Source of the DNA: Planctomycetota bacterium
GTDB lineage: Bacteria > Planctomycetota > PLA2 > JAEUHO01
Direction: 5' to 3'
Assembly (NCBI GenBank): GCA_965222115.1
Contig: CBDCTJ010000007.1
Coordinates: 2,452,691-2,516,690 of the forward strand
DNA length: 64,000 nucleotides
The translations under genes and the position numbers were made by a program. Below, piece after piece: positions 3,534 through 64,000 of this stretch. The notes under the pieces were generated by a model. It was not told where the DNA came from, made no database searches, and saw only the letters and a list, made by a program, of their open reading frames with translations. Numbering within the stretch: position 1 is the first letter of the stretch; each line of letters begins with the position of its first letter.

Positions 3534-3726
3534 TGCAGGTCTCCTTGACCCCATCCCCCGGGGTCAGGAGCTACATAGGATTTGCCCGCTGCGGATGGCG
3601 CGAAACTCGGCGAAATTCTTCCGCGCGTCAGCCCTGTCCCCATTTTTAGCGGCTTCGAGTTGCTCCGACCCGCGAAATCCGAAATTTTCCGTACGATGCC
3701 GACCGAAACACGTCTGTACGGGTGTC

Positions 3727-16490: not shown

Positions 16491-18803
16491 GTGAAGCAAT
16501 GGACGCTGCGGGCCGGCATCCTCCTCTGTGTGGGCCTCGCCCTGGCCGATTTGCAACCAATTCCCATCGGTGACCCACCGCCTCCCAGGCTGATTCTTGA
16601 CGTTTCCGCAAGCATGGGTCCCGCCGCTCAAGAGCATCCGGATGACATAAAATACGGTTATCCAGTAACTTATGTCGCATCCAGGGCGGCGGATATGCGC
16701 CTAGGGCAAGCCCCGCCCCAAGTAGGAACGGGCGCGACGCGGCTCGGAGAGGCCATTCGAAGGGCGCCCGAGGGTACAACCTTGATTTTGGTGAGCGACG
16801 GATTGGATACCGATGGCGATGCCATCATGGCGTCCCGTGACCACCACCAAAAAGGCGGTCGCGTCTTCACACATCCGCCCAAATCCAGCGTTGCAGACGT
16901 GGGTTTGACCTCGCTGCGGGTGATTTCCGAGCGGCCTCGGGCCACATTCGAAGCCGAGCTTCATGCGACGACTTCCGGCGAAGCCCGACTGACACTTCAG
17001 CGTGAAGACCGAATTGCATTGGAGCGGACCCTCTCATTCGTGGCGGGCGAGACGAGGACCGTTGAGTTGGTGGATACCGTGCCCGTTGCCCGGGATGCGC
17101 CGCGAGCGCGCTACCGCGTTCGTCTAACGGTTGGCGCTGAGACGCCCAATGACATCGCCGAAAACGACGAGCTTAACGTTGTGCTTCAAGCCGGGACGCG
17201 ACGCGCCCTGTGGTGGGGCGATCCCAATCTCGATCGCGATGCGTTGGCCCAGCGATCGGATGTCGCCATTCAGGTGGTCGACGTGTTGCGAGCCGCCGAA
17301 GTACGCGCCGCCGATGTTCTCGTAGTCTCGAACATCCCCTACTACGAGATTCGAGGACACACCGACGTCATCGAGTCATTTGTGGCGCGCGGCGGAAGCC
17401 TGCTCATGCTTGGAGGGCCCGACGCTTATGCAGGAGGTGGTTGGGGAGGGACGCACCTCGAGGAGCGTCTGTCGGCGCTGCAATCCAAGCGATCCGATCG
17501 AACCGCATTGGCACTCGTTCTTGCGCTTGATCACAGCGGGAGTATGGCGGGTGGCGCACTCCAGCGATTACGCGAATCGGTGCGGACCGCGGTTGCAGGG
17601 CTCGCACCCGATGAACGGCTTGCGGTCTTGCCTTTCTCTTCCGGTCGCGATGCCACCCTGTTGACGCCGGGGTTCGTTTCGCGCGACGACACGGCGGCGG
17701 TTGAAACGTTGCTGCATGCGCTAGATGGATTGGAGGCGCGAGGGAGCACGCAGTTACTTCGTGCCATACAAGCGTCGGCGGCTCACCTGCGAGATGTGGA
17801 TGCACGCGAGCGACGGGTGGTACTGCTCAGCGATGGCGATCCCGACCACGAGTTGAGTGAATCGGAACTCGAAGCCACACGGAAGATCTTGGTTGAAGAG
17901 CAAATCGGGTTCGGCGCACTTGTCGTGGGCATGAAACGCGTGGCCGATCGCCTTGTGACGTTGTCGTCCAATCCCAAGGATGTGGTGTTGCTGCGCCAGC
18001 CCGGCGCCTTTCCCGATTCGCTCCGACGACAGTTGCAACGTCGTCGTCGCAGTAAGGAACGTGTCAATCCTCCCATCACGCTAGTGATCGATGACGCTAC
18101 TCGTTGTCCCATCGATGCGAAGCTTACGATTCACTTTGCACATCGTCTGAGCGTCCATCCACAAGCCATTCGCATTGCACGGTTGACCGCCGGCCGCGGT
18201 CGAGAGTTGCTTCCCTTTGCCGCAGAGCGGCGGGTGGGGGCGGGCACCGTCGTGTCGGTGGCCTGGGGCCCTGAAGGTGAGCGCTCCATAGACCACGCAC
18301 GCGCCACGGACGCGTTGCTGCCGCTGGTCGTTCGCCTTGCCGCGCGCTCGGATCGCGGTCTCGCGGCCGAGATCAATGGAAACGAACTCATGGTTGTGGC
18401 GCCATTTGCAGCGAGCCTCGGTGTCTTGTCGCTGCTAGATGGCGAAGAACGGCCTGTGGGCGAGCTAATTGAACGTGAACCTGGCATGTTTGTTGGACCC
18501 ATCCCGCTCGCCGACGGACTGTCGATTCGCCATGGGGACGCCCGGCACACACTGCGTCTGCCGGCGCGGCCCGCGCCCGAATTTCGTCGCATTGGCACCG
18601 ACGAGATATCGCTCATGCGCATTGCGGATGCCGGTGGCGGGCGCCTACTGCAACGTGGGCAGTCGCCGCCACGCGCCGAGACGTTTCGCGGTTCCTCGTG
18701 GGCGCCGTGGTTTCTTCTCGCGGCGCTATTGCTCTTCGTGTGGGAACGTCACGAGTCAAACACCGCCAAACGTATGGCGCTTGGTGATGCGCTTGCCGGA
18801 TGA
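16491..18803 (+). CDS. von Willebrand factor A (VWA) domain protein, two VWA/MIDAS modules, signal peptide and C-terminal TM
   Basis: N-terminal signal sequence LRAGILLCVGLALA; MIDAS-like DxSxS motifs LILDVSASMG and LALDHSGSMAG; C-terminal hydrophobic WAPWFLLAALLLFVW; GTG start. Confidence 0.7.
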   Translation: MKQWTLRAGILLCVGLALADLQPIPIGDPPPPRLILDVSASMGPAAQEHPDDIKYGYPVTYVASRAADMRLGQAPPQVGTGATRLGEAIRRAPEGTTLILVSDGLDTDGDAIMASRDHHQKGGRVFTHPPKSSVADVGLTSLRVISERPRATFEAELHATTSGEARLTLQREDRIALERTLSFVAGETRTVELVDTVPVARDAPRARYRVRLTVGAETPNDIAENDELNVVLQAGTRRALWWGDPNLDRDALAQRSDVAIQVVDVLRAAEVRAADVLVVSNIPYYEIRGHTDVIESFVARGGSLLMLGGPDAYAGGGWGGTHLEERLSALQSKRSDRTALALVLALDHSGSMAGGALQRLRESVRTAVAGLAPDERLAVLPFSSGRDATLLTPGFVSRDDTAAVETLLHALDGLEARGSTQLLRAIQASAAHLRDVDARERRVVLLSDGDPDHELSESELEATRKILVEEQIGFGALVVGMKRVADRLVTLSSNPKDVVLLRQPGAFPDSLRRQLQRRRRSKERVNPPITLVIDDATRCPIDAKLTIHFAHRLSVHPQAIRIARLTAGRGRELLPFAAERRVGAGTVVSVAWGPEGERSIDHARATDALLPLVVRLAARSDRGLAAEINGNELMVVAPFAASLGVLSLLDGEERPVGELIEREPGMFVGPIPLADGLSIRHGDARHTLRLPARPAPEFRRIGTDEISLMRIADAGGGRLLQRGQSPPRAETFRGSSWAPWFLLAALLLFVWERHESNTAKRMALGDALAG

Positions 18804-19662
18804 AATGATGGCGAGCGATATGCCACTTCGCGTTCCCACCATCCGCGCGCTCGCGTTCTCGGTTCCAATCGCACTTTTGTTCGTGCTGGCCGGTTGCCAA
18901 TCGGGCTCTGTGGCGGGCAAGGCGGATGGGGAGCTTGAGCGCAAGCCCTCCGATCGCAAGCTGGCAAAGCGCAAGGCTGCGAAGTCGCGATCGTTCTACT
19001 TGGGCTCAAAGGAGACCCAGGCATCGATCGCCCGCGACATTGAAGCGCTCGCCACCGCCTCGCCCGATCAGCATGCGACGATTCACCGTCGGCTTGTGGG
19101 TCGGGGGGAAGCATCCGTGCCCAAGCTCATGAAGGCGCTGACGCACCAAAGTCCACGTATCCGTATGCGCGCAGCGTACTCACTCGGCAGGTTGAACGAC
19201 GTACGATCATTCGATGCATTGGCAGCCGCGCAGCGGGATACCGATCCCGCCGTGGCGTTTGAGGCCGCAACGGCATTGGCTCGCTGCAAAGACGACCGCG
19301 GGTTGCCGCTGTTGATTCGCGGGCTGTCCCATGCGAAGGCCACAACGCGTGCTAGGTGTATGCAAGTACTCAATGAATGCACGGGTGAGACGTTCGGCTT
19401 TGTTGCCAACGACCGCTTGGAGGATCGGGAAGCAGCGATTGCGCGTTGGCAAGGGTGGCTCGACCGACGCCGCTACGAACTCTACGACCACCATCGTGAA
19501 GAAAGTGAGTCGTCACGCGCCAAGCCGGGTGCTTCAGCGAGCGCGGACGCGGATTCAGATGGCCTGGGTCTCCCCATTGCACCGCGTAAAGGTCCATCGA
19601 ACCAACCTGTCGATGAGCCGCCGCCCGTTGTTGGCTACGGCAGCCCGGATGGGGACGGGTAG
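18787..19662 (+). CDS. HEAT-repeat lipoprotein
   Basis: Signal peptide plus lipobox (ALLFVLAGCQSG); HEAT/PBS-lyase-like repeats (SPRIRMRAAYSLGRLND, DTDPAVAFEAATALARCKD, AKATTRARCMQVLNE); acidic low-complexity tail. Start ambiguous (18787, 18805 or 18820). Confidence 0.5.
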   Translation: MRLPDEMMASDMPLRVPTIRALAFSVPIALLFVLAGCQSGSVAGKADGELERKPSDRKLAKRKAAKSRSFYLGSKETQASIARDIEALATASPDQHATIHRRLVGRGEASVPKLMKALTHQSPRIRMRAAYSLGRLNDVRSFDALAAAQRDTDPAVAFEAATALARCKDDRGLPLLIRGLSHAKATTRARCMQVLNECTGETFGFVANDRLEDREAAIARWQGWLDRRRYELYDHHREESESSRAKPGASASADADSDGLGLPIAPRKGPSNQPVDEPPPVVGYGSPDGDG

Positions 19663-20545: not shown

Positions 20546-20800
20546 TGAAAGGGGCGCTACGTTCCAAGTCGGTCCGATGTAGGAAAATGGCTCCAACGGG
20601 GCCAACGTTGATAGCCCAGGATGCACATCGAGCGCAGCGAGATGAAATCCAGGGTTAATGGCCAAACAAGAAATTCGGCGCCCTGCAGGGGCGCAAGTGG
20701 GCTTGAAGCAACAGACTTGGTGGAATGAGACGCTACGCAGTAGTGTATGGACTGACGTTGAGATTGACTCAACACTATCTAGTCGAGGCCCTTGCGCAAA

Positions 20801-22096
20801 ATGTGGCGACCTAAATGGCCCACCGTTTCCAAATGTGTCAAAGCGGCCTTTGGTGCATTACTTGTGCTGTTCATCGCGTCGTCCTCGGCTTGTGGCGATT
20901 GCAAGAACACCGAGACAGTTGTCGAATTAGAGAGGCACGCGGCGGGCGGCGACTGTTCCTCTGCGTATCAACTCGGTCGCGTTGTGCCTCACGTGGCGAT
21001 GCGTCTATTGCGAAATGCCACCGACAGTTCGATACGACGCACGCTCTTGGAAGGACTTGTTGCCAGCCGCTTCTCGAAACCTGATGGGTACATTCAGTTG
21101 CTAGATGAACTGCTTGACCATGAGGACATTGAGACCACACATGCCGCGTTGCGGGCACTAGCCGTGGCGGGGTACCAACATACGACGGCGCTGGTCGCGG
21201 TGACTCGTGTTGCAGAGAGCGAGACGTATTCTATTTCGTTTCGTATCCGCGCCATTGAGTGGCTAGCGAGGCATGGCAAGCGAGCATCGAGTTTTCATCC
21301 GAAGCCCGAGGTGATCTTCTCAACGAAGCATCCGTACATTGTGCGTGCCTATGCGAAATTGGTTCGTTGGTCTGTCATTGATCACTTGACTCTCGGGAGC
21401 GCTTTCGCTGAGTGGCTCTCACGAAATCCAACTAGTGGCGCCAATCCAACATCACTATTTTTTGAGCACTTGCCTGACAATTCAAACTCAAGGCTTGTCG
21501 AGTTGGCGCTTGACTACTTGTCGCGAGGACATCCCGTGGATGTTGTTGCAGCCTTGTACTTCGCGCGACGATCCCGGGTATTGCGACGAAAGGCAAAGCG
21601 TCAGATAGAACTAAAGATGGATGGCGGGGACGCACTTGCATTGGCTGCTGCGGAAGCAAGTGCGGACTTCGATCGTCCGCGGGCGCTAAAATTCTTGAAA
21701 GACGTAGTGCGCGTAGACAAGCAACTGCCCCCGGGCTACGTCGTGGATGCGATCGGACAACTGACTCGATTGTTGGAGCCCAGCGAGTTGGCCGAGTTCC
21801 TTGAAACGGTCACAAGTCCCAGCCCGTGGGTACGAATCAGGATTGCGGTTGCGCTGGCGAATGCGGGCTCGACGCCTGCGTCATCTGCAATAAACGCGCT
21901 CGTCGGGGAGATTCTGAAGCCCGCCCCCAGGAGAACGCCGTTTAACGCTAGTCAAGCGGGGCTCGTTCTAGAGTGCCTGGCATTGACGAATCTTCAGTCA
22001 ACGGATCTCGTACCACTCATCAAGCTCCGTTGCAAAGTCGATCCGTATGTCAGAGAAGCCATTACTGAGCTAGTCATCGACGTGGCGCATCGGTAG
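20801..22096 (+). CDS. lipoprotein with HEAT/ARM-like helical repeats; lower GC than neighbours
   Basis: Signal peptide and lipobox (AAFGALLVLFIASSSACGDC) from ATG 20801; helical repeats (ETTHAALRALAVAG, PWVRIRIAVALANAG); first 69 nt are ~51% GC against ~62-65% elsewhere, with TTA/CTA/ATA codons. Confidence 0.5.
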   Translation: MWRPKWPTVSKCVKAAFGALLVLFIASSSACGDCKNTETVVELERHAAGGDCSSAYQLGRVVPHVAMRLLRNATDSSIRRTLLEGLVASRFSKPDGYIQLLDELLDHEDIETTHAALRALAVAGYQHTTALVAVTRVAESETYSISFRIRAIEWLARHGKRASSFHPKPEVIFSTKHPYIVRAYAKLVRWSVIDHLTLGSAFAEWLSRNPTSGANPTSLFFEHLPDNSNSRLVELALDYLSRGHPVDVVAALYFARRSRVLRRKAKRQIELKMDGGDALALAAAEASADFDRPRALKFLKDVVRVDKQLPPGYVVDAIGQLTRLLEPSELAEFLETVTSPSPWVRIRIAVALANAGSTPASSAINALVGEILKPAPRRTPFNASQAGLVLECLALTNLQSTDLVPLIKLRCKVDPYVREAITELVIDVAHR

Positions 22097-23532: not shown

Positions 23533-24702
23533 CTATGAGGAACCGCCGTCCTCAACCGTTTCATAGATCCGGTACCGCTTCGTGATCATGCCACCGATGG
23601 CCTCAATCCCGGCGCGCATCTTCGCATTGTCTTCCAGCACCCAGCCACACTCGGCGCCAACGACCTTAGAGGCGCGACCACCGAGGAGGCCGCGCGTGAT
23701 GAGGGCCTCAGCAATCGCGGAACCGCGGGCCTCCGGAACGACGCCGAGAAGTACGCAGCGCGTTCGACGAACGTTTTTGAGCCCGCGCAAGAGCTTGAAC
23801 CACATGACCGGGAGCATGCGACCTCGGCCGCGATGAAGAATTCGATTGATGTCGCGCAGGAACACGCTGAAGCCCACCGGGACGCCCTTGCGCTCGGCGA
23901 CGCCGGACATGTTGGGGTCGATCAGCATCTTGAGATCCTTGGCGGCATGATCGAATTCCGCATCGGTCGTCGGGACGAAGCCCCAGTTCTTTTCCCAAGA
24001 ACGATTGTAGAGACTTCGAATGATCTTGATTTCGCTGTCGAAATTGTCGGTGTCAATGGCGCGAATCACTATGCCTTTGCGAACAAGCTGGCGATCGATG
24101 ACGCGTTTGAAGCGAGGTGGCAGAGGGAGCGACGTGGGGCACCAGTAACTTATGAGGTCCTTCACACCCACGAGGCCGGCACCCGTAACCAGCAAGTCGT
24201 AGTCCGGTCGATTGTAGGGCATCAGAATGGCCGGCGGCTCGCCGAACCCCTGAACGAGGATGCCGCAACTGTCATTCGTCGAGTAGTTGACCGGTCCGCG
24301 CATGGGCGAGAGGCCGCGTGCGTCGCACCACGCCTTGGCCGCATTGAGCAAAGCCTTTGCGGTTTCTACGTCTTCGTACGCCGCTACGTCAAAGAACCCG
24401 AAGAAGCCAATGCGATCTTCGTGGATTTCATTGTGACGTCGATTTTCGATCGCAGCAATGCGCCCGACGATCTCATTGCCGCGCCACGCAAGAAAGTGCT
24501 GTGCGTCGGCGTGCAAGAAGAAGGGGTTCTTTTTCTGGTCCATGAGCGCGGCTTCGACCATCCGGAGCGGCGGTACATAGTCGGGCCACTTCGCATTGAT
24601 CTTGTAGGTAAAGTCGATGAATGCCTTGCGCTCACGACGCCCCTGCTCGGGACGTACGACAACGGGCGTGGTGGACGGAGCATCCATGGAAGAGTCGCTC
24701 AC
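23533..24702 (-). CDS. putative N-acyltransferase, candidate bacterial ceramide synthase by context
   Basis: 389-aa soluble protein 44 nt downstream of the SPT-like gene on the same strand; no motif I can assign confidently; call rests on gene context. Confidence 0.35.
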   Translation of the reverse strand: MSDSSMDAPSTTPVVVRPEQGRRERKAFIDFTYKINAKWPDYVPPLRMVEAALMDQKKNPFFLHADAQHFLAWRGNEIVGRIAAIENRRHNEIHEDRIGFFGFFDVAAYEDVETAKALLNAAKAWCDARGLSPMRGPVNYSTNDSCGILVQGFGEPPAILMPYNRPDYDLLVTGAGLVGVKDLISYWCPTSLPLPPRFKRVIDRQLVRKGIVIRAIDTDNFDSEIKIIRSLYNRSWEKNWGFVPTTDAEFDHAAKDLKMLIDPNMSGVAERKGVPVGFSVFLRDINRILHRGRGRMLPVMWFKLLRGLKNVRRTRCVLLGVVPEARGSAIAEALITRGLLGGRASKVVGAECGWVLEDNAKMRAGIEAIGGMITKRYRIYETVEDGGSS

Positions 24703-24745: not shown

Positions 24746-25948
24746 CTACGCCTTGACCAGTTGAAATTGCTGCGCGACGCTCCTGAACGCCTGAAGCACG
24801 AGGTCCAAATCCTCGTCGGTGTGCGTGGCCATGTACGACGTGCGCAGGAGACTTTGGCCGGGAGGTACGGCCGGGGGCAACACCGGATTGACGAATACGC
24901 CCTGCTCAAAGAGCGCGCGGTTGAACTTGAGAGTGGGTTCTTCTTCGCCAATCACCACACTCAGAATCGGGCTGCCGCCGTCGTGAATCACGTCAAGGCC
25001 CATGGCTTCAAAGCCTGCCTTCATCTTGGCCACGTTCTTCCACAGGGCTTTGCGCCGTTCAGGTTCGTCGCGAATGACGTGCAGGCACGCAAGCACGGTC
25101 GCCACACTCGACGGCGTCATGCTTGCTGAAAAAATGATCGATCGGCTGACGTGCTTGAGGAAGTGAATGACATCGGCAGGGCCGGCGATGAATCCGCCAA
25201 GGCACGCAAAGGACTTGCTAAACGTGCCAACGACGATGTCTACGTCGTCCATGACACCAAAGTGTTCGGCGGTGCCACGGCCATGTTCACCGAGGACGCC
25301 CAGAGCATGGGCATCGTCGACAATGACGCGCGCTGGGTACTGTTTCGCCAAGCGAACGATTTCAGGTAGCGGCGCGAGATCGCCCAGCATGGAAAACACA
25401 CCATCCGTAATGATGATGCGACCGCCGCATTCGGGGATTTCGGTAATCGCCAGCACGCGCTCCAGGTCATCCACGTCGTTGTGTCGATATTTCAAGAGCT
25501 TGGCGAATGACAGCCGGCAACCATCGATGATGGATGCGTGATTGTCTCGGTCGCCAAAGATGATGTCGTCACGACTGGCAATGGCAGAGATGAGGCCGAG
25601 ATTGGTTTGAAAGCCCGTGCCCGATGTAATGCACGCCTCTTTGCCAAGAAAGCGCGCGAGTTCCTCTTCCATTTCTTCATGGAGACTTAATGTGCCGTTG
25701 AGGAAGCGGCTTCCGGTGCACCCCGAACCAAACTTTGAGATGGCTTCACGGGCCGCTTCCAACACACGCGGTTCGTGCGTGAGACCGAGGTAGTTATTGG
25801 AGCCGGCCATGACGAGTTCGCGCCCGTCGATGTTGACACGCGTACCGCGTCTACTTTCCGAGATGGCCCGGAAGTAGGGGTAGATGCCCGCGGCCTGCAG
25901 GTCTTTCGCCCGCGCGTAGCGTTCGGCCTTCTCAAACGGGTCTAGCAC
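24746..25948 (-). CDS. spt: PLP-dependent alpha-oxoamine synthase, most similar to serine palmitoyltransferase
   Basis: PLP-lysine motif VVGTFSKSFACLGG (SPT-type GTFSKS); FGSGCTGSRFLNGT, DNHASIIDGC and YRHNDVDDLERVL resemble recalled Sphingomonas SPT more than Kbl or BioF; alpha-oxoamine synthase family itself is near certain. Confidence 0.65.
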   Translation of the reverse strand: MLDPFEKAERYARAKDLQAAGIYPYFRAISESRRGTRVNIDGRELVMAGSNNYLGLTHEPRVLEAAREAISKFGSGCTGSRFLNGTLSLHEEMEEELARFLGKEACITSGTGFQTNLGLISAIASRDDIIFGDRDNHASIIDGCRLSFAKLLKYRHNDVDDLERVLAITEIPECGGRIIITDGVFSMLGDLAPLPEIVRLAKQYPARVIVDDAHALGVLGEHGRGTAEHFGVMDDVDIVVGTFSKSFACLGGFIAGPADVIHFLKHVSRSIIFSASMTPSSVATVLACLHVIRDEPERRKALWKNVAKMKAGFEAMGLDVIHDGGSPILSVVIGEEEPTLKFNRALFEQGVFVNPVLPPAVPPGQSLLRTSYMATHTDEDLDLVLQAFRSVAQQFQLVKA

Positions 25949-26167
25949 AGGCGTCCTCGCGCGGCGGTTTCATCGAATCGCCCGGCTGCGCTCGATGGAA
26001 GGGGCATACTTGGATCTAGCGAGACGTGGGACCTTCGCCCAGCCCCGCCACGGGCTCGGTAAGTCTACCGATGCCGGGAGACCATGACGGCAGGCGTGCG
26101 ACCCGGCGGCGCGAATTCTGTCCGACGTCCATTGGGGACAAGCCCACCTCGGCGCGATAGTCCCTCC

Positions 26168-27157
26168 ATGCGCGTACTTGTCACCGGTGGACATGGATTC
26201 GTGGGTCAGCACCTCGTTCGCTCTCTGTTGGGGGCGGGGCATGCGGTTTCCATCCTCTACCGGCACAGCGGTCGGCCTGCCAGTCTCGACGGGCTCGACG
26301 TCGAGGTCGTCCATGGCGATTTGAACGACGGGCGAGGATTGGATGCGGCCGTCGCGGACCGAAAACGCATCTTTCATCTCGCCGGTCTGACCCGCAGCGT
26401 CACGCGCAGCCAAATGCTGCGCACAAACGTGGATGGAACGGCGCGGCTCCTCGCGGCGGCGCGCCGATCCGGATTTCGAGGGCGATTCGTATTCTGCAGT
26501 TCGCTGGCTGCGTGTTCGCCCAGTTTGGACGGCACGCCGTTGACTGAGCTGACCGCAACCATGGCGCCGCTCACGTGGTACGGCGAAAGCAAGCGCAAGG
26601 CCGAGTCACTTGTACGTCGGTGTGTCGGCGAATTCGACACATCCATCGTTCGCCCACCCGCCGTGTACGGCCCCGGTGATCGCGATTTTTTGACCTTCTT
26701 CGACAGCGTTGCTAAGGGCGTGGCGCTCGTTCCTGGCCGTCGCACGACCGCGCTGTGCAGTTTGATCTTCGCGCCGGATCTTGCCGAGGCTTTGATGGCA
26801 GTGGGGGACTCGCCGGCCACGATCGGCAAGACCTACTTCGCCGCCCATCCGGAGATTGTGTCGGTAGACGACATGATTCGTGCCGCTGAGGCGTCTATGG
26901 GTCGTAGATCCAGGCGACTGCGACTGCCCACCTCCCTTCTCAGACTCACGGGGAAGGTTACGGATCTCGTGACACAGATTACGGGTCGTGCCTCGCTCCT
27001 CGGAAGCCAGCGAATTCGAGAGGTCGCCAGTGCACATTGGGTGTGCAGCCCGGAACGCGTTCAGCGCGACACGAGTTGGCGCGCATCCACGCCGATTGCC
27101 CGTGGCTTCCCGGAGACTGTTGCGGTGTACCGCGCGCGCGGGCAGCTCAAAATTTGA
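26168..27157 (+). CDS. NAD(P)-dependent epimerase/dehydratase-family (extended SDR) protein; candidate ceramide reductase by context
   Basis: Rossmann motif MRVLVTGGHGFVGQHLV, catalytic YxxxK (WYGESKRKAE); divergent from the spt-like gene. Start placed at ATG 26168. Confidence 0.6.
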   Translation: MRVLVTGGHGFVGQHLVRSLLGAGHAVSILYRHSGRPASLDGLDVEVVHGDLNDGRGLDAAVADRKRIFHLAGLTRSVTRSQMLRTNVDGTARLLAAARRSGFRGRFVFCSSLAACSPSLDGTPLTELTATMAPLTWYGESKRKAESLVRRCVGEFDTSIVRPPAVYGPGDRDFLTFFDSVAKGVALVPGRRTTALCSLIFAPDLAEALMAVGDSPATIGKTYFAAHPEIVSVDDMIRAAEASMGRRSRRLRLPTSLLRLTGKVTDLVTQITGRASLLGSQRIREVASAHWVCSPERVQRDTSWRASTPIARGFPETVAVYRARGQLKI

Positions 27158-27210
27158 GTTTCGCCGGATGATTCGTGCGCCAACGCTGAGATCGTCCTTC
27201 CGGAACCGAT

Positions 27211-27738
27211 TTGGACGTCGTGTTTGACCTTGCTTGGGTCCGCCCCGAGAATGCGACGGTGCTACCGAATGCTCGACCCCCTCGCCGCGGACTGACGCGC
27301 TTGCGCAAACTCGCTTGCGGGCCGCTGCTGTTGCTGATCCTTTGTGTATTGGGGGGGTGTCAGAGTGAAGAAGCATTTGCGCCGCGGCCTTTGGATCAAG
27401 CGATCAAGCATCCCAGTCCCGGCGTTCGCGTGGCCGCGGTGCAGCGTGCGATACAGTCCGGTGACACAAGCGAGGTGCCGGAACTTATAGAAATGCTCGA
27501 CGATGAGGACCCAACAGTGCGGATGCTTGCATCGTCATCGCTCAAGCGCATCACGGGTCGAGACACCGGCTATCTGCCGTATGCATCCCCAGAAGTTAGG
27601 CGTTCGCAGCGGGATGCGTGGCGTTTGTGGTGGGCGTCACAACAGCAAATCGGTGACTCGGCGAGTTCGCCTCCCCTGTATCCAGTCTCAAAGCCAATGA
27701 CCATGGATTCGCCACATGGGGAGGGCATGGGTGAGTGA
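27211..27738 (+). CDS. small HEAT-repeat lipoprotein
   Basis: Signal peptide and lipobox (LACGPLLLLILCVLGGCQSEE); HEAT-like repeats (HPSPGVRVAAVQRAIQSGD, DEDPTVRMLASSSLKRITG). Start uncertain (TTG 27211, GTG 27259 or TTG ~27301). Confidence 0.5.
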   Translation: MDVVFDLAWVRPENATVLPNARPPRRGLTRLRKLACGPLLLLILCVLGGCQSEEAFAPRPLDQAIKHPSPGVRVAAVQRAIQSGDTSEVPELIEMLDDEDPTVRMLASSSLKRITGRDTGYLPYASPEVRRSQRDAWRLWWASQQQIGDSASSPPLYPVSKPMTMDSPHGEGMGE

Positions 27739-28168
27739 GCCGCAACAAATCCAGACAGAGCGGCTTGAGACTTCTCTCACCTCCAATCCACGGTGGCTTC
27801 CCGTCGTGCGTGGCATAGTGAGCGAAGCCGCCGGCGTGGTGGGACTCGATCGCGAGGCACAAGAGTCAATCGCTTTGGCGGTCAATGAAGCGTGGACCAA
27901 CGTGATTCGACACGTGTACGGCGGGCGCGAAGACGCACGCATTGACCTGGCAATTGAACTGCACCCCGACCGCCTCGCGACGTATATTACCGACTACGGC
28001 ACGTTTGTGGATCCCGGAACCATTCGGTCACGGAGGCTCGAGGACGTACGCCCCGGCGGCATTGGTGTTCACCTTATCAAGACCACCATGGACGACGTGG
28101 AGTACAAGTTGAACGAGCACGGGGGAACAACATTGTCCATGGTTCGCTATCTCGAATCGCATGCGTAG
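27716..28168 (+). CDS. anti-sigma regulatory factor / serine protein kinase (RsbW/SpoIIAB-like GHKL ATPase)
   Basis: HATPase_c layout: N-box ALAVNEAWTNVIRHVYGG, G-boxes ITDYGTFVDPGT and RPGGIGVHLIKTTMDDVEY; ~150 aa as for RsbW. Confidence 0.7.
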   Translation: MGRAWVSEPQQIQTERLETSLTSNPRWLPVVRGIVSEAAGVVGLDREAQESIALAVNEAWTNVIRHVYGGREDARIDLAIELHPDRLATYITDYGTFVDPGTIRSRRLEDVRPGGIGVHLIKTTMDDVEYKLNEHGGTTLSMVRYLESHA

Positions 28169-28225
28169 CAATTCGGCTACGTAGCGAATCGGTTGGCGCA
28201 CGCCACATGCTATGAAGGAAACCCC

Positions 28226-28567
28226 ATGAAAGTCACCAGCGAATCCCACGGGAACGGATCCGTATTTGTCGTTGAAGGTCACTTGGACATGGGGTCTACC
28301 TCAACGCTGCGCAATGAGTTGCGCGGCGCGCTCAAGCGCAAAAGCACACCGTTGGTCGTGGATCTCACGGATGTCGCGTTTATTGATTCAAGCGGCCTCG
28401 CCACGTTGATTGAGGCGCTGCAGTCGGTCTCGCACTATGGGGGTCGCATGTGCCTGTGTGGTTTGCGGCCTGAAGTCAAGCGCCTATTTGAACTTGCCCA
28501 TCTCGGAAGCATTTTCGAGGTAAAGGAAACCCGCGACCAAGCGCTTGGTCTCACGGGCCCCGCGTAG
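28226..28567 (+). CDS. STAS-domain anti-sigma factor antagonist (RsbV/SpoIIAA-like)
   Basis: STAS fold with phosphorylatable-Ser motif VDLTDVAFIDSSGLATLIEAL; good SD (GAAGGA) before ATG 28226. Confidence 0.75.
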   Translation: MKVTSESHGNGSVFVVEGHLDMGSTSTLRNELRGALKRKSTPLVVDLTDVAFIDSSGLATLIEALQSVSHYGGRMCLCGLRPEVKRLFELAHLGSIFEVKETRDQALGLTGPA

Positions 28568-28685
28568 CCATTTTCAAAATCGATTTAGATCAGGGGCAGA
28601 GAGAAACCGCCGAGTGAACTTGTGTAAGGAGTAGCGTTTTGCCGCACGGTCGCTCGCGCGTTCCGCTCGGGAAGGGACCACACTC

Positions 28686-29498
28686 GTGGCGGTCGTAGGC
28701 GGCATAGGGCGGTGGATTGAGGCCCTTGGTGGAACGGTTCTAGGGACGGTCCAGTTCCTTGGCGGCCTCGGGCTGATGGTGCGCCAGAGTGTGGGCCATC
28801 TTGTGTTGGGTCCCTTTCGCGGCCAAGGTGTACCGCGTCGCGCGTTCATGACGCAGGCTGTGCGCGCCGGCCCCAAGTCGTTGTTCATCGTATGCATCAT
28901 TAACTTCTTCGTCGGCGTGATTCTCGCGTTGATCGGTGGCGACATTCTCAATCTGCTCGGATTCAAAGAGTATGTGGGCGACCTCATCGGCGTGGGAATC
29001 GTCATGGAACTCGGCCCGCTGCTAACAGGCATCATTATGACCGGCTACATCGGGGCGGCGTTCGCTGCCGAGATTGGGACCATGGTGGTGTCGGAGGAGA
29101 TTGTCGCCTTGCGCACCATGGCGCTCAATCCCGTGCGTGTCATCGTTGCGCCACGCATGTTGGCCGTGCTCTTTATGGTTCCCTGCGTGACGATTATCGG
29201 AAATGCCGTGGGCATTCTCGGCGGCGCAAGCGTGGCTCATTCCGTGTTGGATGTATCCCCCAATACGTTTTGGGAGCATGTGTGGGCCACGTTGGCGCCG
29301 CGTCAAGTTTGGCGTGGACTCGCCAAGAGCGTGGTATTTGCGCTTCTCATCGGCGCCATTGGTTGTTTTAAGGGCTTCCGGGTGTCGGGCGGTGCGGAGG
29401 GCGTGGGCCGGGCCACCACCAGCGCGGTGGTGACTACCATTATCAGCATTGTGATCAGCGATGGGATCCTAAACTATTTGCTGCTCTATCGTTTGTAG
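28686..29498 (+). CDS. mlaE: MlaE-family ABC transporter permease
   Basis: MELGPLLTGIIMTGYIGAAFAAEIGTMVVSEEIVALRTMALNPVRVIVAPRMLA and GRATTSAVVTTII align with recalled E. coli MlaE (RELGPVVTALLFAG, MAVDPLRRVVAPRF, SRATTRTVV). Confidence 0.85.
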   Translation: MAVVGGIGRWIEALGGTVLGTVQFLGGLGLMVRQSVGHLVLGPFRGQGVPRRAFMTQAVRAGPKSLFIVCIINFFVGVILALIGGDILNLLGFKEYVGDLIGVGIVMELGPLLTGIIMTGYIGAAFAAEIGTMVVSEEIVALRTMALNPVRVIVAPRMLAVLFMVPCVTIIGNAVGILGGASVAHSVLDVSPNTFWEHVWATLAPRQVWRGLAKSVVFALLIGAIGCFKGFRVSGGAEGVGRATTSAVVTTIISIVISDGILNYLLLYRL

Positions 29499-29516
29499 GG
29501 CACGCGGAGCACAACC

Positions 29517-30956
29517 GTGTCGATGTACACAAAGAACGCCGAGTTCAAGGCCGGGGTCGTGGTCCTGCTTGCCATTCTTGGGTTCTTGGCCTTCCTGTAC
29601 TTCGCCGGTGGATCCGAGAGCCCGTGGCGCGACTACCGCTATGTGCAGTTGCGCTTTCAACCGGGTTTCCTCGCACCCCGTCCTGGCGATCCCGTTCAAA
29701 TGAATGGCGTTACGGTGGGGCGCGTTCACCATGTGAAGCAGCGGGAAGAGGTCCGTCGCAATGAGCAGTTGACGGTTGCCGATCGACGCAAGTTGGGCTT
29801 GAGGGCGGATGAGCCGGGCGAAGTGCGCGAAATGTATGTGCTGGCGACCGTAAAGATGCCCGCCGATCAGGTAATACCGCAGGGCTCGGCGGCACTGATC
29901 GATCAGAACATTGCGGGTGTGCGTCAACTGTCCCTTTTGCCGGGTGCCTCCACGGAAAACCTCACCGACGAACAGACCGCGTCGTCGCCGCTTCCGGCCA
30001 GCGAAGCGCCAGGCATCAAAGACGTCACCACCAATCTCAATGAACTGGTTGGCAAGTTGGACACGTTGGTGGTGAGTGCCGACGAAGTGTTGGTGGAGGC
30101 GCGCGACCTCATCGCGACCGTGCAGGAAAAGGTGGACGCGCTCGACACCGCCACAGTCAACGATGAAGTGAAGGTCATCGCCAAGGCGGTGCGCGAAGCC
30201 ATTGAGTCGTTGAAGGCTCGATTGGAGAGAATCGGTGCCAACATCGAAGAGGCGTCCGTTGATGCCAAGGCGATGACCAAGTCGGGCGTCGAGACGGTGG
30301 ACGCCATTCGCGATGGGTTGGACAAGAATCTCGCTTCCCTCGAAGGCGTTATCACTCGACTCGACAAGATTATTGCCAAGGCCGAACCGCAGGTCGATAG
30401 CTTTCTTGTGAGCATGAACAACATGTCGCGCGACATGGAATCGGCCGCTAAGAACTTCAAATCTTTGTCCACCGAGTTTGCTGGAATCGGGCCCGACGCG
30501 AGGCGCATACTCAATGATCTCGGCGTCGAGTTTGACGATGTAGTCAATACGTTGGGTGACATGGCGCGCAATCTGCTCGACGCCTCCGAGGATTTACGCG
30601 CCCGGCCCTGGCTGCTCACCAATAAGCCCGATCCGGGCGAGATCGCGTTCGACAACTTGCGCGCGGCGTCTCGCAACTACATGAAGGCGATGGCCGGTGC
30701 GCAACGTGCCATGGTCAAACTGAGTCAGTTGCTGGCGCGCCCCGATGTCCACGATCCGCGTGTGCGCGCCATGATTCACGCCGCCATGCAGAACTACCAG
30801 GCATCCCTGGAGAAGTACCGCCGCGACGAAGCGCGCTGGACTCGCCTTTTTGAGACGGCGCCCAAGGGCGAGGGTGCCCGTGTCCCCCCACGCAATCCGG
30901 CACGCAGTGCACACCCCGGAAATGCAAACCCCGGGAATGGCCAGCCGGGACGTTGA
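29517..30956 (+). CDS. mlaD: MCE-domain protein (MlaD/Mce family) with long C-terminal coiled-coil extension
   Basis: N-terminal TM (AGVVVLLAILGFLAFLYFAG) then MCE domain; ~300 aa of helical, coiled-coil-like C-terminal sequence; directly downstream of mlaE. Confidence 0.75.
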   Translation: MSMYTKNAEFKAGVVVLLAILGFLAFLYFAGGSESPWRDYRYVQLRFQPGFLAPRPGDPVQMNGVTVGRVHHVKQREEVRRNEQLTVADRRKLGLRADEPGEVREMYVLATVKMPADQVIPQGSAALIDQNIAGVRQLSLLPGASTENLTDEQTASSPLPASEAPGIKDVTTNLNELVGKLDTLVVSADEVLVEARDLIATVQEKVDALDTATVNDEVKVIAKAVREAIESLKARLERIGANIEEASVDAKAMTKSGVETVDAIRDGLDKNLASLEGVITRLDKIIAKAEPQVDSFLVSMNNMSRDMESAAKNFKSLSTEFAGIGPDARRILNDLGVEFDDVVNTLGDMARNLLDASEDLRARPWLLTNKPDPGEIAFDNLRAASRNYMKAMAGAQRAMVKLSQLLARPDVHDPRVRAMIHAAMQNYQASLEKYRRDEARWTRLFETAPKGEGARVPPRNPARSAHPGNANPGNGQPGR

Positions 30957-31135
30957 CTCGGATTCTCCCGAATCAGAACCATCGGACCCGAGACATCAGG
31001 ACGCGGCATCGATGATCGATTCGGCCGTGGTATCGGCGAGACGATTGTTGTGCATCTCGTACGGGGTTCTATGCTCCCAAGCCGATGAACGCCCTCACGA
31101 GGGTGCATCGATCCAACATCAACAAGGAGAGCGCA

Positions 31136-32068
31136 ATGCGCAAGGTAGGCATGATCGGCGGTGGCAATGTAGGTGCCACATGCGCGTATCAAATCGCATC
31201 CGCCGGAATGGCCGACGTGGCGATTTACGACATTTTGGAAGGCGTCCCCGCTGGCAAAGCGCTGGACATGTCGCAAGTTGGTCCGGTCTTCGGATTTGAC
31301 GGCGCGATCACCGGAAGCCACGACGTGTCCATCATTGAGGGCTCCGAAGTTGTGGTGGTAACGGCAGGCTTTCCTCGCAAGGCCGGCATGGATCGTATGG
31401 ACCTCCTGCGAAAAAACGTCGCGATTGCGCGCGCGAGCGGTGAAGCACTCAAGAAGTACGCACCCAACGCTGTGGTGATCGTGGTCACCAATCCACTTGA
31501 TGTCATGACGTGGGTCATTCAGCAGTCCAGCGGTTTTCCGGCCGAGCGTGTCATCGGCATGGCGGGCGTGCTCGATTCTTCCCGATTCTCAACATTCATT
31601 CGCATGGAACTTGGCGTGACGCCTAAGGATGTGAAAGCGATGGTGCTTGGTGGGCACGGCGACAGCATGGTTCCGCTTCCGCGGTTTAGTACCGTGAACG
31701 GTGTTCCGATCACCGAACTCATGTCGGCCGAGCGCATTGAGGCGCTTAGCGACCGCACGCGTAAGGGCGGCGCCGAGATCGTGAAGCTACTTGGTACGGG
31801 AAGTGCGTTTTATGCGCCTGGTGCCAGCGCGGCCATCATGGCCGAGGCCGTACTCAATGACAGCAAGCGCTTGCTTCCCTGCAGTTGTTGGCTCAGCGGT
31901 CAGTACGGCATCAACGACGTCTACCTCGGCGTGCCTGCCAAGCTCGGCAAGGGCGGCGTCGAGGAGATCATCGAACTCGACCTTCGTGACGACGAACTGA
32001 AGGCGCTCAAAGCATCGGCGGCAACAGTGGCCAAGGGCATTTCCGACGTTCAATCGTTGGATGCGTAG
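31136..32068 (+). CDS. mdh: malate dehydrogenase (LDH-like family)
   Basis: NAD-binding KVGMIGGGNVGATCA; VVVTAGFPRKAGMDRMDLL; IVVTNPLDVMT; AAGGAG SD upstream of ATG 31136. Confidence 0.9.
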   Translation: MRKVGMIGGGNVGATCAYQIASAGMADVAIYDILEGVPAGKALDMSQVGPVFGFDGAITGSHDVSIIEGSEVVVVTAGFPRKAGMDRMDLLRKNVAIARASGEALKKYAPNAVVIVVTNPLDVMTWVIQQSSGFPAERVIGMAGVLDSSRFSTFIRMELGVTPKDVKAMVLGGHGDSMVPLPRFSTVNGVPITELMSAERIEALSDRTRKGGAEIVKLLGTGSAFYAPGASAAIMAEAVLNDSKRLLPCSCWLSGQYGINDVYLGVPAKLGKGGVEEIIELDLRDDELKALKASAATVAKGISDVQSLDA

Positions 32069-40788: not shown

Positions 40789-42966
40789 ATGCGGCGCCAA
40801 AAGACCCTCACCGTCATGTTCACCGATATCTCGGGGTTTACGAAGCACACCGAGACCGTTACGCGCGATGAATTGATGGCGCGGCTCGACGAGCACAACG
40901 CCCTACTCATGCCCATTGTGCGCCACTTTGAAGGTCGTATTGTGAAGTCCATTGGCGATGCGCTCATGATCGTCTTCGAAAGTCCAACGAACGCCGTGCA
41001 ATGTGGGATGTTGATGCAACATCGATTGGCGCGCCACAACCGTGGCAGGGTTGAATTCGAACAGATACACATCAAGGTTTCGCTCAACGCTGGCGAAGTC
41101 ACAGTAACCGAGAACGATGTCTTTGGCGATTGCGTCAATGTGGCGGCAAAGATTGAGAAGGCCACACGGCCCGACGAAATCTACTTCACGGAATCGGTCT
41201 TCCTCGCCATGAACAAAGCGGAGGTGCCCAACGTCTTCGTAAAGAACTTTCGACCTAAGGGTGAACAGAGCCATGAGATCAAGCTCTACAAGGTCATCCA
41301 AGATGTAACCAACGAACAGTACGCACGTCTTATCCGCGATACGGACATTAAGGACGACGATCCATCCGACGCGCTTGAGCTATCGGATCTTGCAGGCAGC
41401 GATCTTCCTAGCGGCCACGACTCCTTGGCGGAACTCATTGCCGACGAACGGGCACGTTCGCGAAAGAACCTTTTGCTGGCAACGGCCTTAGGCGCCTTGT
41501 TGCTCGGCGGGCTCGTCGTAGGGGGACTGGCGCTGTTTAGTGGCAGCAAAGGCCCCACCGCTGCCGATCGTACGACCGACGCCGTTCGTGCCTACTTGGC
41601 CAAAGGCAATGTGGAGGGCGCCCGATCCGCGATCGCCAATTTTGGAGCCGACGGCGGGAGTCAAGAACGCATTGCGCAGTTGCAGCGCGAGATTCACGCC
41701 TATCAGGGTGGTGAATCGGTAAAGCGCATCAAGGCGCTACTTGCCGACGACAACGTGGACGATGCCCGTTCACTTGTCGGTAGCAATCGCGAGTTCATTC
41801 CGACCGCGTTGCTGACTCACATCGATGCGCTAGCGGCGGCGGAACAGGCGCTACGCGACGGCGACGCGGAGGCGGCGCGTAAGGGCTTGCAGGGTGCGGA
41901 CCCGACGTTCACTCCGAGGAACGCCTACGCGGCGTGCAAGAAGCGAATCGAGGCCATCGATACCGCGTGGCACGTGCATGAACACTCGGAATCGGTCGAT
42001 GACGCAGAGCGAGCAATCGAGGTCCTGTCGGGGGCATTCGGAGACGACACCCATCATCCTGTGGCCACGCGTATTTTGGGCGACATGATCATTCGTTCTG
42101 TTGGCATGACAGCTCGGACGAGTGGGCGCAAGGCGATCCGCGAGCACTTTGACGCGCTCATGAAACGCTTTCCAGGTATCAAAGATCGCACGCGTATTCG
42201 CCGCGAAGTGCAGCTCCACGCGCTGTGGTTTTACACGAGTGACTACGAGGCTCGACGTCGCTGGCGCGGTCGATTTGACAGCCAGAGTCAACGGGAGATT
42301 GCTACGCTTCGCGAGCTGGGCAAAGGCGATGCCGACTTTTTGTTTCGACTTGGCGTCACGCGCCACCGGATTTCGCGAAAGAACGGACTCGGCATATCGG
42401 ATGGCGCGCAAGACATTGAGAGCGCCATGAAGTTGGATCCGCGCCTCATTGAAACGCGTGCCGACGAGTTGTACCCGATTGCGATCGATTGGCTACGTTG
42501 GGTGTCGTCTCCCGATTCACTGGCCCACAAGCTCGTTACGGGCCCCTTCAAAGAGCGTGCGCGCGAGCATCTTTTTGCCCGTGCCTTTGCTCCCTACGGT
42601 GGCAAGCGCGACGACGCACCGCGGCCTGAAGAACGCGCCAATGCTGTTGCGGCGTTGGTTGCCATGAATGCACCGATCGAAACCGAACAAGCCGTGGAGT
42701 TTGTGACCAACAACTGGAAGACCGTGCTCACGGGTCGCAATCCGATCATTTCCATCGATGTCTTTGCTGCTCTCTTTGCCCGCAAGGACATGGCCTACGA
42801 GTACTTCGAACGCTTGGCAGGCGACATCAAACGGATCCAAACCGAACTGGGCGCCAAGCGAGGCAAGTTCAGCGCCTACAAGCACGCCCGCGATCGCATC
42901 CTCGCTCTCCGCCGCACCCTCATCGACGCCCACCCCGCTCACGCCAAACGCTTCGCCGCAAACTAG
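40789..42966 (+). CDS. class III adenylate/guanylate cyclase: N-terminal catalytic domain, single TM, large C-terminal helical domain
   Basis: Cyclase motifs LTVMFTDISGFT, VKSIGDALMIVF, GDCVNVAAKIE; hydrophobic helix LLLATALGALLLGGLVVGGLALF at ~aa 225-250; ~470 aa of helical/TPR-like sequence after it. Confidence 0.75.
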   Translation: MRRQKTLTVMFTDISGFTKHTETVTRDELMARLDEHNALLMPIVRHFEGRIVKSIGDALMIVFESPTNAVQCGMLMQHRLARHNRGRVEFEQIHIKVSLNAGEVTVTENDVFGDCVNVAAKIEKATRPDEIYFTESVFLAMNKAEVPNVFVKNFRPKGEQSHEIKLYKVIQDVTNEQYARLIRDTDIKDDDPSDALELSDLAGSDLPSGHDSLAELIADERARSRKNLLLATALGALLLGGLVVGGLALFSGSKGPTAADRTTDAVRAYLAKGNVEGARSAIANFGADGGSQERIAQLQREIHAYQGGESVKRIKALLADDNVDDARSLVGSNREFIPTALLTHIDALAAAEQALRDGDAEAARKGLQGADPTFTPRNAYAACKKRIEAIDTAWHVHEHSESVDDAERAIEVLSGAFGDDTHHPVATRILGDMIIRSVGMTARTSGRKAIREHFDALMKRFPGIKDRTRIRREVQLHALWFYTSDYEARRRWRGRFDSQSQREIATLRELGKGDADFLFRLGVTRHRISRKNGLGISDGAQDIESAMKLDPRLIETRADELYPIAIDWLRWVSSPDSLAHKLVTGPFKERAREHLFARAFAPYGGKRDDAPRPEERANAVAALVAMNAPIETEQAVEFVTNNWKTVLTGRNPIISIDVFAALFARKDMAYEYFERLAGDIKRIQTELGAKRGKFSAYKHARDRILALRRTLIDAHPAHAKRFAAN

Positions 42967-44753: not shown

Positions 44754-44807
44754 TGAGAACTCCTCACGCGACGCGCGTAGCGCCTCGTGCATGAAAGAAC
44801 AGATTCG

Positions 44808-46010: not shown

Positions 46011-46013
46011 GAG

Positions 46014-47321: not shown

Positions 47322-47380
47322 AGAGTCTCTCGTGTCGATTCGAATGGTGTGTTTGCAGGATGGGGGCGCCTCGTGATTGG

Positions 47381-48358: not shown

Positions 48359-48430
48359 GAGCTGATTCCTGAATGCGTGTCGAATGGGATTCGACGAAAT
48401 ACGGGTATTGAAACGAAGGCGAGCGAACGT

Positions 48431-49555: not shown

Positions 49556-49649
49556 GAAAACTCCTCTTTCGTGTGTCTCCGTCGCAACGAACAACCCGAG
49601 AGACGCCAAGCGAACGCGAAGGATACGCCGTCTCGAACTCGCCTCCAAG

Positions 49650-63970: not shown

Positions 63971-64000
63971 CTCAATGCGTGTATTGAATGAGCGGAAGCC

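Follow-up and report, generated by a model that had tools for sequence, protein, structure and literature searches.

The 64,000-nt stretch of DNA analyzed here (the window) derives from a Planctomycetota bacterium (contig CBDCTJ010000007.1, forward-strand positions 2,452,691 to 2,516,690) and carries, between positions 27716 and 30956, four open reading frames (ORFs), all on the plus strand, for a predicted serine kinase, a STAS protein, an MlaE-type permease and an MCE-family protein. A first, sequence-only reading of this DNA had proposed just this order, namely, a GHKL-type kinase, a STAS antagonist bearing the serine of a DSSGL motif, the permease MlaE and a long-tailed MCE protein of 479 aa, with no gene for the ATPase MlaF next to them, and our analysis bore out each of these points. 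The system combines an Mla/MCE transporter with a partner-switching module, each part being of a known kind.

The first gene (27716..28168, plus strand) codes, in a 150-aa ORF, for a serine kinase of the RsbW/SpoIIAB type with an HATPase_c_2 domain; the database gene call begins at a GTG codon at 27731 and yields a protein of 145 aa. The start of the gene overlaps the stop codon of an upstream gene for a HEAT-repeat lipoprotein. As the protein scored 82.5 bits against Pfam HATPase_c_2 (PF13581, cutoff 27.4), the proposal of a GHKL-type kinase was upheld. Its best NCBIfam model was RsbW, with 75.6 bits, which is under the equivalog cutoff of 145; it likewise stayed below the cutoffs of a second RsbW model (72.3 bits, cutoff 155) and of the SpoIIAB model (38.2 bits, cutoff 135). 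The best PDB match was RsbW (6m36, 52.8 bits), and SpoIIAB of Bacillus subtilis gave 15 bits. The window protein is nearer to the kinases of the MlaF-containing cassettes described below (99 bits) than to either of these B. subtilis proteins. In an alignment of 10 Mla-linked kinases, the ATP-binding residues of the N-box (E58 and N62), the G1 box (D93 and G95) and the G2 box (G114-G115-x-G117) were invariant, both in cassettes that contain mlaF and in those that do not. We class the protein as an RsbW-like HATPase_c_2 kinase, with predicted kinase activity.

The second gene (28193..28567, plus strand) codes for a single-domain STAS protein of the SpoIIAA/RsbV type. Comparison with homologs indicates that translation likely starts at the ATG at 28226, giving a protein of 113 aa. 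It scored 76.8 bits against Pfam STAS (PF01740, cutoff 22.6) and 80.7 bits against the anti-sigma antagonist model TIGR00377, above the cutoff of 53.45. Among PDB entries, SpoIIAA matched with 53.5 bits (E value of 2.5e-13) and MlaB with 16.5 bits (E value of 0.07). The protein contains the motif FIDSSGL, with D65-S66-S67-G68 in the numbering of the ORF, and S66 (codon 28388-28390) aligns with two known positions, S58 of SpoIIAA, which is phosphorylated, and T52 of Escherichia coli MlaB. The DSSG motif was found in 11/11 aligned Mla-linked STAS proteins and is invariant in both forms of the cassette. In local BLAST searches, E. coli MlaB retrieved the cassette STAS proteins, with 33% identity over 87 aa for that of locus L023 (loci are designated by L numbers) and 31% over 49 aa for that of the window. 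The gap between the STAS gene and mlaE (28568-28685) measures 118 nt in the window and 75 nt in L002; in most other relatives, it is about 5 to 25 nt or the genes overlap. No Rfam match and no convincing promoter or terminator was found in this gap.

The third gene (28686..29498, plus strand) codes for a 270-aa ABC permease of the MlaE family, which scored 234.8 bits against Pfam PF02405 and 197.6 bits against TIGR00056, slightly below the cutoff of 212.2. Over 258 aa, it shares 30% identity with its E. coli counterpart, and the cytoplasmic stretch that matches the coupling-helix region between transmembrane (TM) helices TM2 and TM3 (AEIGTMVVSEEIVALRTM) is conserved with the MlaF-containing cassettes and with E. 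coli. The fourth gene (29517..30956, plus strand) codes for a 479-aa protein that has a TM helix at its N terminus, a single MCE beta-barrel (approximately residues 40 to 163) and a helical "needle" of about 280 residues. In an AlphaFold2 (AF2) model, the TM helix was followed by the beta-barrel, predicted with a local distance difference test score (pLDDT) of about 80 to 87, and by about 280 residues of long helices. When the model was compared with the PDB using Foldseek, the top 13 matches were all MCE proteins, Mce1 coming first (E value of 3.5e-9), followed by MlaD, PqiB and LetB. The match to Pfam MlaD was subthreshold (20.2 bits versus 25.1), TIGR00996 gave 47.6 bits, the precomputed Pfam annotation is PF28544 (Helical_needle), and homologs are named MlaD by JGI. 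From its predicted fold, we assign the protein to the MCE family, with a long helical tail. In this it is like the needle types of Mce1 and the "long MlaD," which are thought to span the periplasm (PMC10665443).

Relative to L002, the closest relative, the ratios of nonsynonymous to synonymous substitution rates (dN/dS) were 0.10 for the kinase, 0.04 for the STAS protein, 0.05 for MlaE and 0.07 for the MCE protein. Such low values indicate that all four are working genes under purifying selection rather than relics. A scan of positions 25800 to 31300 for promoters and terminators gave no excess over shuffled controls and is hence uninformative about transcription units; searches of the window for tRNA genes and Rfam families returned no matches.

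We looked in the window for the other parts that an Mla system or a partner-switching module would be expected to have. Neither a scan for Walker A motifs nor phmmer searches with MlaF queries detected an MlaF-type ATPase in the 64 kb, so that none lies just outside the four-gene interval either. The sole Walker A/ABC_tran match belongs to an ABC domain at 62471-63970 on the minus strand, which we rejected as the missing ATPase: it is part of an exporter in which the transmembrane and nucleotide-binding domains are fused, it is 25% identical to MlaF, and it lies about 32 kb away on the opposite strand. This MsbA-like exporter gene (62471-64000, minus strand) is cut by the end of the window. 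No Pfam match to MlaC or MlaA was obtained among the approximately 50 window ORFs scanned, which is consistent with the "long MlaD" type as described in a phylogenomic survey of Mla systems (PMC10665443). A group-3 sigma factor and a PP2C phosphatase were likewise not found in the 64 kb.

Twelve related loci of the same type, reached by way of MCE protein and kinase homologs (L002-L005, L007, L009, L013 and L019-L022), reproduced this picture. The sources of several close kinase homologs are named Planctomycetota by NCBI. The order HEAT lipoprotein, kinase, STAS, MlaE, MCE protein and malate dehydrogenase (mdh) is kept in 11/12 of these loci, with overlapping or short junctions, and the kinase-STAS pair was present in all loci found through the MCE protein that had sufficient upstream sequence. 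None of the 12 has a gene for an ABC ATPase or a PP2C phosphatase in the available flanks of up to 10 kb.

A second form of the cassette was reached through distant relatives of the MCE protein (20 to 23% identity) and through homologs of the kinase that accompanies them. At its core, genes for the kinase, STAS protein and MlaE are followed by those for an ABC ATPase (about 270 aa) and MlaD, in this order; an accessory gene for a TPR protein or ABC_trans_aux usually comes next. The ATPase, which over 259 aa (the C-terminal extension included) has 46% identity to MlaF of E. coli, is classed as a true MlaF, and its gene is present in nine loci outside the Planctomycetota clade. In L014-L018, L023/L024 and L028, the gene directly upstream codes for a GAF-SpoIIE (PP2C) phosphatase; L026 has a response regulator-SpoIIE gene 8 kb from the cassette, and no SpoIIE phosphatase gene was found near that of L025. 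L023 is part of the complete genome of the cultured bacterium Syntrophobacter fumaroxidans MPOB (CP000478.1, approximately 3,026,259 to 3,032,170) and has a full cassette, with genes for GAF-SpoIIE, kinase, STAS, MlaE, MlaF, MlaD and a lipobox-containing TPR protein. Its kinase is labeled simply "ATP-binding protein" by NCBI and "putative anti-sigma regulatory factor" in UniRef. L025 is a metagenome-assembled genome of Tectimicrobiota, and further matches are named Desulfobacteraceae and Acidobacteriota by NCBI. No Spt or short-chain dehydrogenase (SDR) genes, which mark the Planctomycetota neighborhood (see below), were found beside cassettes from outside the Planctomycetota.

As an unbiased test of linkage, we took the contexts found from the kinase (L019, L020/L021, L022, L023/L024, L025, L026 and L028): 8/8 independent loci have kinase, STAS and MlaE in this order, with the genes overlapping or nearly abutting. 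Overall, the STAS gene lies directly upstream of mlaE in at least 20 loci, so that the gene order seen in the window is conserved, with its kinase, in several phyla. As the arrangement recurs in more than 20 loci and all of its genes are under purifying selection, it does not represent a chance adjacency. L001 (Kapaibacterium), the sole distant locus obtained from a search of contigs with MlaE, was set aside, its genes for MlaE and a GNAT-like protein being parted by an unrelated gene, which makes their adjacency uninformative. From these comparisons, we regard the window as the Planctomycetota version of the wider kinase-STAS-MlaE-MlaF-MlaD cassette. The description of an MlaF-less module thus holds for the locus but does not capture the essence of the system, since the absence of the ATPase is a derived trait, its gene having been lost in this clade from a cassette that was complete.

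The sequence-only reading had left two outputs for the module, an MCE lipid transporter or a sigma factor. In a classical anti-sigma switch, the kinase would sequester a sigma factor encoded elsewhere and the STAS protein would be its antagonist, with the adjacency to the MlaE and MCE genes reflecting coregulation, for instance in an envelope stress regulon, and the sigma factor controlling lipid transport genes. Both proteins do fall by sequence into the RsbW/RsbV-SpoIIAB/SpoIIAA families, and partner-switching modules located far from their sigma factor gene are common among Rsb systems. However, among the genes of the Pfam-annotated contexts, not one has a sigma-70 family domain listed. The sole sigma factor in the window is the N-terminal part of a 1155-aa protein (3595-7062, plus strand), encoded about 20 kb upstream of the cassette; it is of the extracytoplasmic function (ECF) type, with Sigma70_r2 and r4_2 matches of 51.7 and 43.7 bits at residues ~68 to 217. 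We rejected it as the cognate factor for its type, its distance and its lack of synteny with the cassette; ECF sigma factors are not known as targets of RsbW. The rest of that protein, a C-terminal region of great length, contains CarboxypepD_reg repeats. The order kinase, STAS, mlaE moreover reverses the usual order of antagonist and then kinase, and mlaE occupies the place where the sigma factor gene follows in classical operons. With the tight linkage to MlaE across several phyla also standing against it, we consider this explanation unlikely, and the coupling to a sigma factor suggested by the sequence-only reading was not borne out.

The other suggestion, phospho-regulation of an MCE transporter by a partner switch, draws its support from the comparison of genomes, in which the pair stays with MlaE and is accompanied in most lineages by MlaF and PP2C genes. 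On balance, we find it somewhat probable that the STAS protein is a phosphorylatable equivalent of MlaB, that the kinase and a PP2C phosphatase switch the transporter, and that the output is the transporter and not a sigma factor. On this reading, the kinase and the STAS protein would together serve, in the cytoplasm, as the regulatory arm of an ABC lipid transporter of the Mla/MCE type, of which MlaE and the MCE protein, with its membrane anchor, putative lipid-binding ring domain and helical needle, would form the conduit through the inner membrane and across the periplasm. We infer that the STAS protein takes the place of MlaB and, when unphosphorylated, would dock on MlaF and permit transport. 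The GHKL serine kinase would phosphorylate the DSSG serine, the structural equivalent of T52 of MlaB, which would release the STAS protein and turn the transporter off, and the PP2C phosphatase, GAF-regulated in many lineages, would reset it. By alternating between kinase and ATPase, the STAS protein would act as a partner switch. In the Planctomycetota clade, where mlaF and the phosphatase gene are gone from the operon, their products are presumed to be supplied in trans.

This scheme has precedents. In E. coli, MlaB binds MlaF with T52 centrally placed in the interface, and the phosphomimetic substitution T52E weakens the binding; phosphoregulation of MlaB was posed as an open question in that work, no kinase being known at the time (PMC7367683). 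In Brucella, a STAS domain is fused to the N terminus of the MlaE homolog MpcE (PMC12436622), and the order within this fusion is that of the STAS and mlaE genes here, which we count in favor of a STAS protein acting on the transporter.

The absence of mlaF in cis could also mean that the system does without an ATPase, with MlaE and the MCE protein forming a lipid conduit that is passive or otherwise energized and the kinase-STAS pair being vestigial or gating MlaE directly. None of the 12 Planctomycetota-type loci has an ATPase gene in cis, and the MCE systems PqiAB and LetAB are served by non-ABC membrane partners. Orphan ATPases for MlaE-like permeases are known, however, an example being the mycobacterial MceG, which is encoded away from the operon. 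The strong purifying selection on the kinase and STAS genes also shows that they are not vestigial. Furthermore, the coupling-helix region of MlaE, which contacts MlaF in E. coli (PMC7790496), is as conserved in the MlaF-less clade as in MlaF-containing cassettes. We hold an ATPase-free system to be very improbable; the conserved coupling-helix region, together with the example of MceG, leads us to favor an ATPase encoded in trans, on which the STAS protein would act.

Several observations weigh against control of the transporter through phosphorylation of the STAS protein. By the models, this protein is SpoIIAA/RsbV-like and not MlaB-like, since it fails the MlaB model NF033618 (27.4 bits versus a cutoff of 90). 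The proposed target is absent in cis in the clade of the window, there being no MlaF or PP2C gene in the 64-kb window and none in the ±10 kb around any Planctomycetota-type locus. In L004, an inversion splits the genes for SDR, HEAT lipoprotein, kinase and STAS, on one strand, from those for the Spt-like and GNAT-like proteins, MlaE, the MCE protein and mdh on the other, so that cotranscription of the kinase-STAS pair with mlaE is not obligatory. Finally, it is equally conceivable that the kinase, instead of the STAS protein, might contact the transporter.

The neighborhood of the cassette in the Planctomycetota clade bears on its possible cargo. The plus-strand block opens with a gene for an extended short-chain dehydrogenase/epimerase, a candidate ceramide reductase-like SDR (26084..27157), whose translation likely starts at M29 (26168); it matched Pfam Epimerase with 112 bits and 3Beta_HSD with 86 bits, reached no NCBIfam equivalog, and is syntenic in all long Planctomycetota-type loci. 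Transcribed divergently from it is a gene for a serine palmitoyltransferase (Spt)-like alpha-oxoamine synthase (24746..25948, minus strand). The top NCBIfam model of this protein was NF047600 (serine palmitoyltransferase), with 510.8 bits versus a cutoff of 640; another serine palmitoyltransferase model gave 416.8 bits (cutoff 500), and Kbl and BioF both gave about 382 bits. Downstream of the Spt-like gene follows that of a 389-aa protein with weak likeness to GNAT enzymes (23533..24702, minus strand), a candidate N-acyltransferase that might resemble bacterial ceramide synthase. A match of 24.4 bits to Acetyltransf_1 is its sole signature; no NCBIfam match and, in single-sequence and profile searches, no significant PDB match was found, and a single-sequence AF2 model had a pLDDT of 33 and was unusable. 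The Spt-like gene is syntenic in L002, L003, L004, L007, L019, L020 and L022, with the GNAT-like gene conserved beside it in L002, L003, L004, L019, L020 and L022. In L004, both lie directly upstream of the MlaE and MCE genes, on the same strand.

Bacterial ceramide synthesis proceeds through Spt, a ceramide synthase of the GNAT type and a reductase resembling NDUFA9, the genes for which are often clustered (PMC11334938, PMC11087976); the reductase, CerR, is an NDUFA9-like SDR, and a transporter for sphingolipids has yet to be identified in bacteria (PMC11087976). The sphingolipid cluster of Caulobacter includes Lpt-like transport genes of its own (PMC11324152). Judged by similarity and gene order, the Spt/GNAT/SDR trio, which keeps its synteny with the cassette in the whole Planctomycetota clade, resembles a bacterial ceramide synthesis pathway. 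A sphingolipid (sphingoid) cargo for the Planctomycetota transporter is possible but unproven.

Between the SDR and kinase genes lies the gene for the HEAT-repeat lipoprotein (27211..27738, plus strand; HEAT_2, 32.9 bits), with the lipobox LGGC. The lipobox was present in the window protein and in 2/3 homologs examined (L019 and L022), and the gene is found directly upstream of that of the kinase in L002, L003, L004, L005, L007, L009, L019, L020, L021 and L022. From the overlap of the two reading frames, it is apparently translationally coupled to the kinase gene. By analogy with the lipobox-containing TPR protein of L023 and the ABC_trans_aux proteins of other cassettes, the HEAT lipoprotein may be a periplasmic or outer membrane partner of the transporter. 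Upstream of the Spt-like cluster are two further genes for HEAT-repeat proteins (18469-19662 and 20792-22096, plus strand), with synteny in L003, L004, L019, L020 and L022, so that the conserved neighborhood exceeds the four-gene interval, and in relatives they often follow an HU-like gene.

With such neighbors, the kinase-STAS pair might have been repurposed in the Planctomycetota after the loss of mlaF and might now regulate the lipid synthesis enzymes or the HEAT/SDR unit, and with them the production of sphingoid lipids. In L004, the pair remains with the SDR and HEAT genes while those for MlaE and the MCE protein have moved beside the Spt-like and GNAT-like genes, and the HEAT gene overlaps the start of that of the kinase. 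STAS modules resembling partner switches are also described as controlling enzymes rather than sigma factors, such as a glycosyltransferase in Anabaena (PMC13555669). Nevertheless, the pair stands directly before MlaE, with short gaps, in 11/12 Planctomycetota-type loci, and MlaEFD, with no Spt or SDR genes, is the context that is ancestral and widespread. As a predicted lipoprotein, the HEAT protein would furthermore be extracytoplasmic and beyond the reach of a cytoplasmic kinase or STAS protein. We judge such a repurposing quite improbable and retain the transporter as the favored target. A broader proposal joins these elements. The locus would specify a dedicated, envelope-spanning exporter of ceramide-type lipids, with export as the presumed direction, made up of MlaE and the needle MCE protein and inherited along with the Spt-, bCerS- and CerR-like enzymes and the HEAT lipoprotein. 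This exporter would be gated by STAS phosphorylation and powered by a shared ATPase in trans or by none, and a phospho-switchable MlaB would be an ancestral and widespread means of controlling Mla/MCE transporters. Taken as a whole, this combination is rather doubtful.

Elsewhere in the window, a 2-oxoacid dehydrogenase cluster (43344-49648, minus strand) comprises two E1-alpha-like genes (44808-46010 and 48431-49648) and genes for E1-beta, E2 and E3; a 500-aa ORF on the plus strand (45528-47030), antisense to E1-alpha and E2 genes, is probably spurious. Envelope-related genes for a GT4 glycosyltransferase and a GT9 heptosyltransferase-like protein are found at 53649-55659 (minus strand) and one for a TonB-dependent receptor at 56474-58870. 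In a 725-aa protein encoded at 40789-42966 (plus strand), an adenylate/guanylate cyclase catalytic domain at the N terminus is followed by a long, unassigned C-terminal part.

No description of a kinase-STAS-Mla cassette was found in the literature searched, where the sole link of this kind was the speculation on phosphoregulation of MlaB. Mla is not mentioned in a review of STAS-only proteins, and the phylogenomic survey of Mla systems, in which MlaB was sought by synteny, does not mention an associated kinase in the passages retrieved (PMC10665443). The cassette bears on the regulation of Mla/MCE lipid transporters, as it ties a kinase, often along with a GAF-regulated phosphatase, to a STAS protein in the position of MlaB across phyla. 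As Syntrophobacter fumaroxidans MPOB is a cultured organism with a complete genome, phosphoregulation of an MlaB-like protein could be tested directly with purified proteins. If the proposed mechanism is true, an ABC lipid transporter would join the short list of partner-switching outputs other than sigma factors. The embedding of the Planctomycetota version among Spt, GNAT and SDR genes also nominates it as a candidate bacterial sphingolipid transporter.

Among known systems, the cassette shares with the SpoIIAA-SpoIIAB-SpoIIE and RsbV-RsbW-RsbU modules of Bacillus a STAS protein with DSSG, an HATPase_c_2 kinase with the ATP-binding motifs and, in relatives of the window locus, a SpoIIE/PP2C phosphatase. 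It differs from them in having no sigma factor gene, in its order of kinase, STAS and then mlaE, in its output, which would be an ABC transporter, and, in the clade of the window, in the lack of a phosphatase gene in cis. The mycobacterial Mce systems (YrbE, Mce1A-F and MceG) similarly combine an MlaE-like permease with long-needle MCE proteins, Mce1 subunits being the best structural matches of the window protein, and their ATPase, MceG, is encoded away from the operon. They have six MCE genes and two permease genes, whereas a single gene of each kind is present here, the MCE protein presumably forming a homohexamer, and mycobacterial Mce operons are without a STAS/kinase pair. As for the neighboring enzymes, the Spt-bCerS-CerR cluster of Caulobacter, with its linked LptC2/F2/G2 genes, likewise brings together Spt-like, approximately 380-aa GNAT-like and extended SDR proteins beside envelope lipid transport genes; in the window, however, the transport genes are of the Mla/MCE and not the Lpt type, and the GNAT and SDR proteins are only candidates for likeness to bCerS and CerR.

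In the SypE/SypA system of Vibrio and the HenR/STAS system of Anabaena, which acts on a glycosyltransferase, a phosphorylatable STAS effector is described as binding and controlling a nontranscriptional target; the target of the cassette would differ in being an ABC lipid transporter. In Brucella Mpc, a chimeric Mla-Pqi system, a STAS domain also lies immediately N-terminal to MlaE and a long MlaD-like protein is proposed to bridge the envelope, but the STAS domain is fused to the permease, MpcF is present, and the description includes no kinase (PMC12436622). E. coli MlaFEDB shares with the cassette an MlaE permease, an MCE protein and a single-domain STAS protein in one operon, as well as a Ser/Thr at the phosphorylation site of SpoIIAA (T52 in MlaB, the DSSG serine here), and the MlaF proteins of the relatives are 46% identical to its ATPase. 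The MCE protein of the window is of the long needle type in contrast to the short MlaD, and MlaC, MlaA and MlaF were not found in the window. Whereas E. coli MlaB has no known kinase (PMC7367683), the SpoIIAA-like STAS protein of the cassette has a dedicated serine kinase encoded with it, joined in relatives by a PP2C phosphatase.

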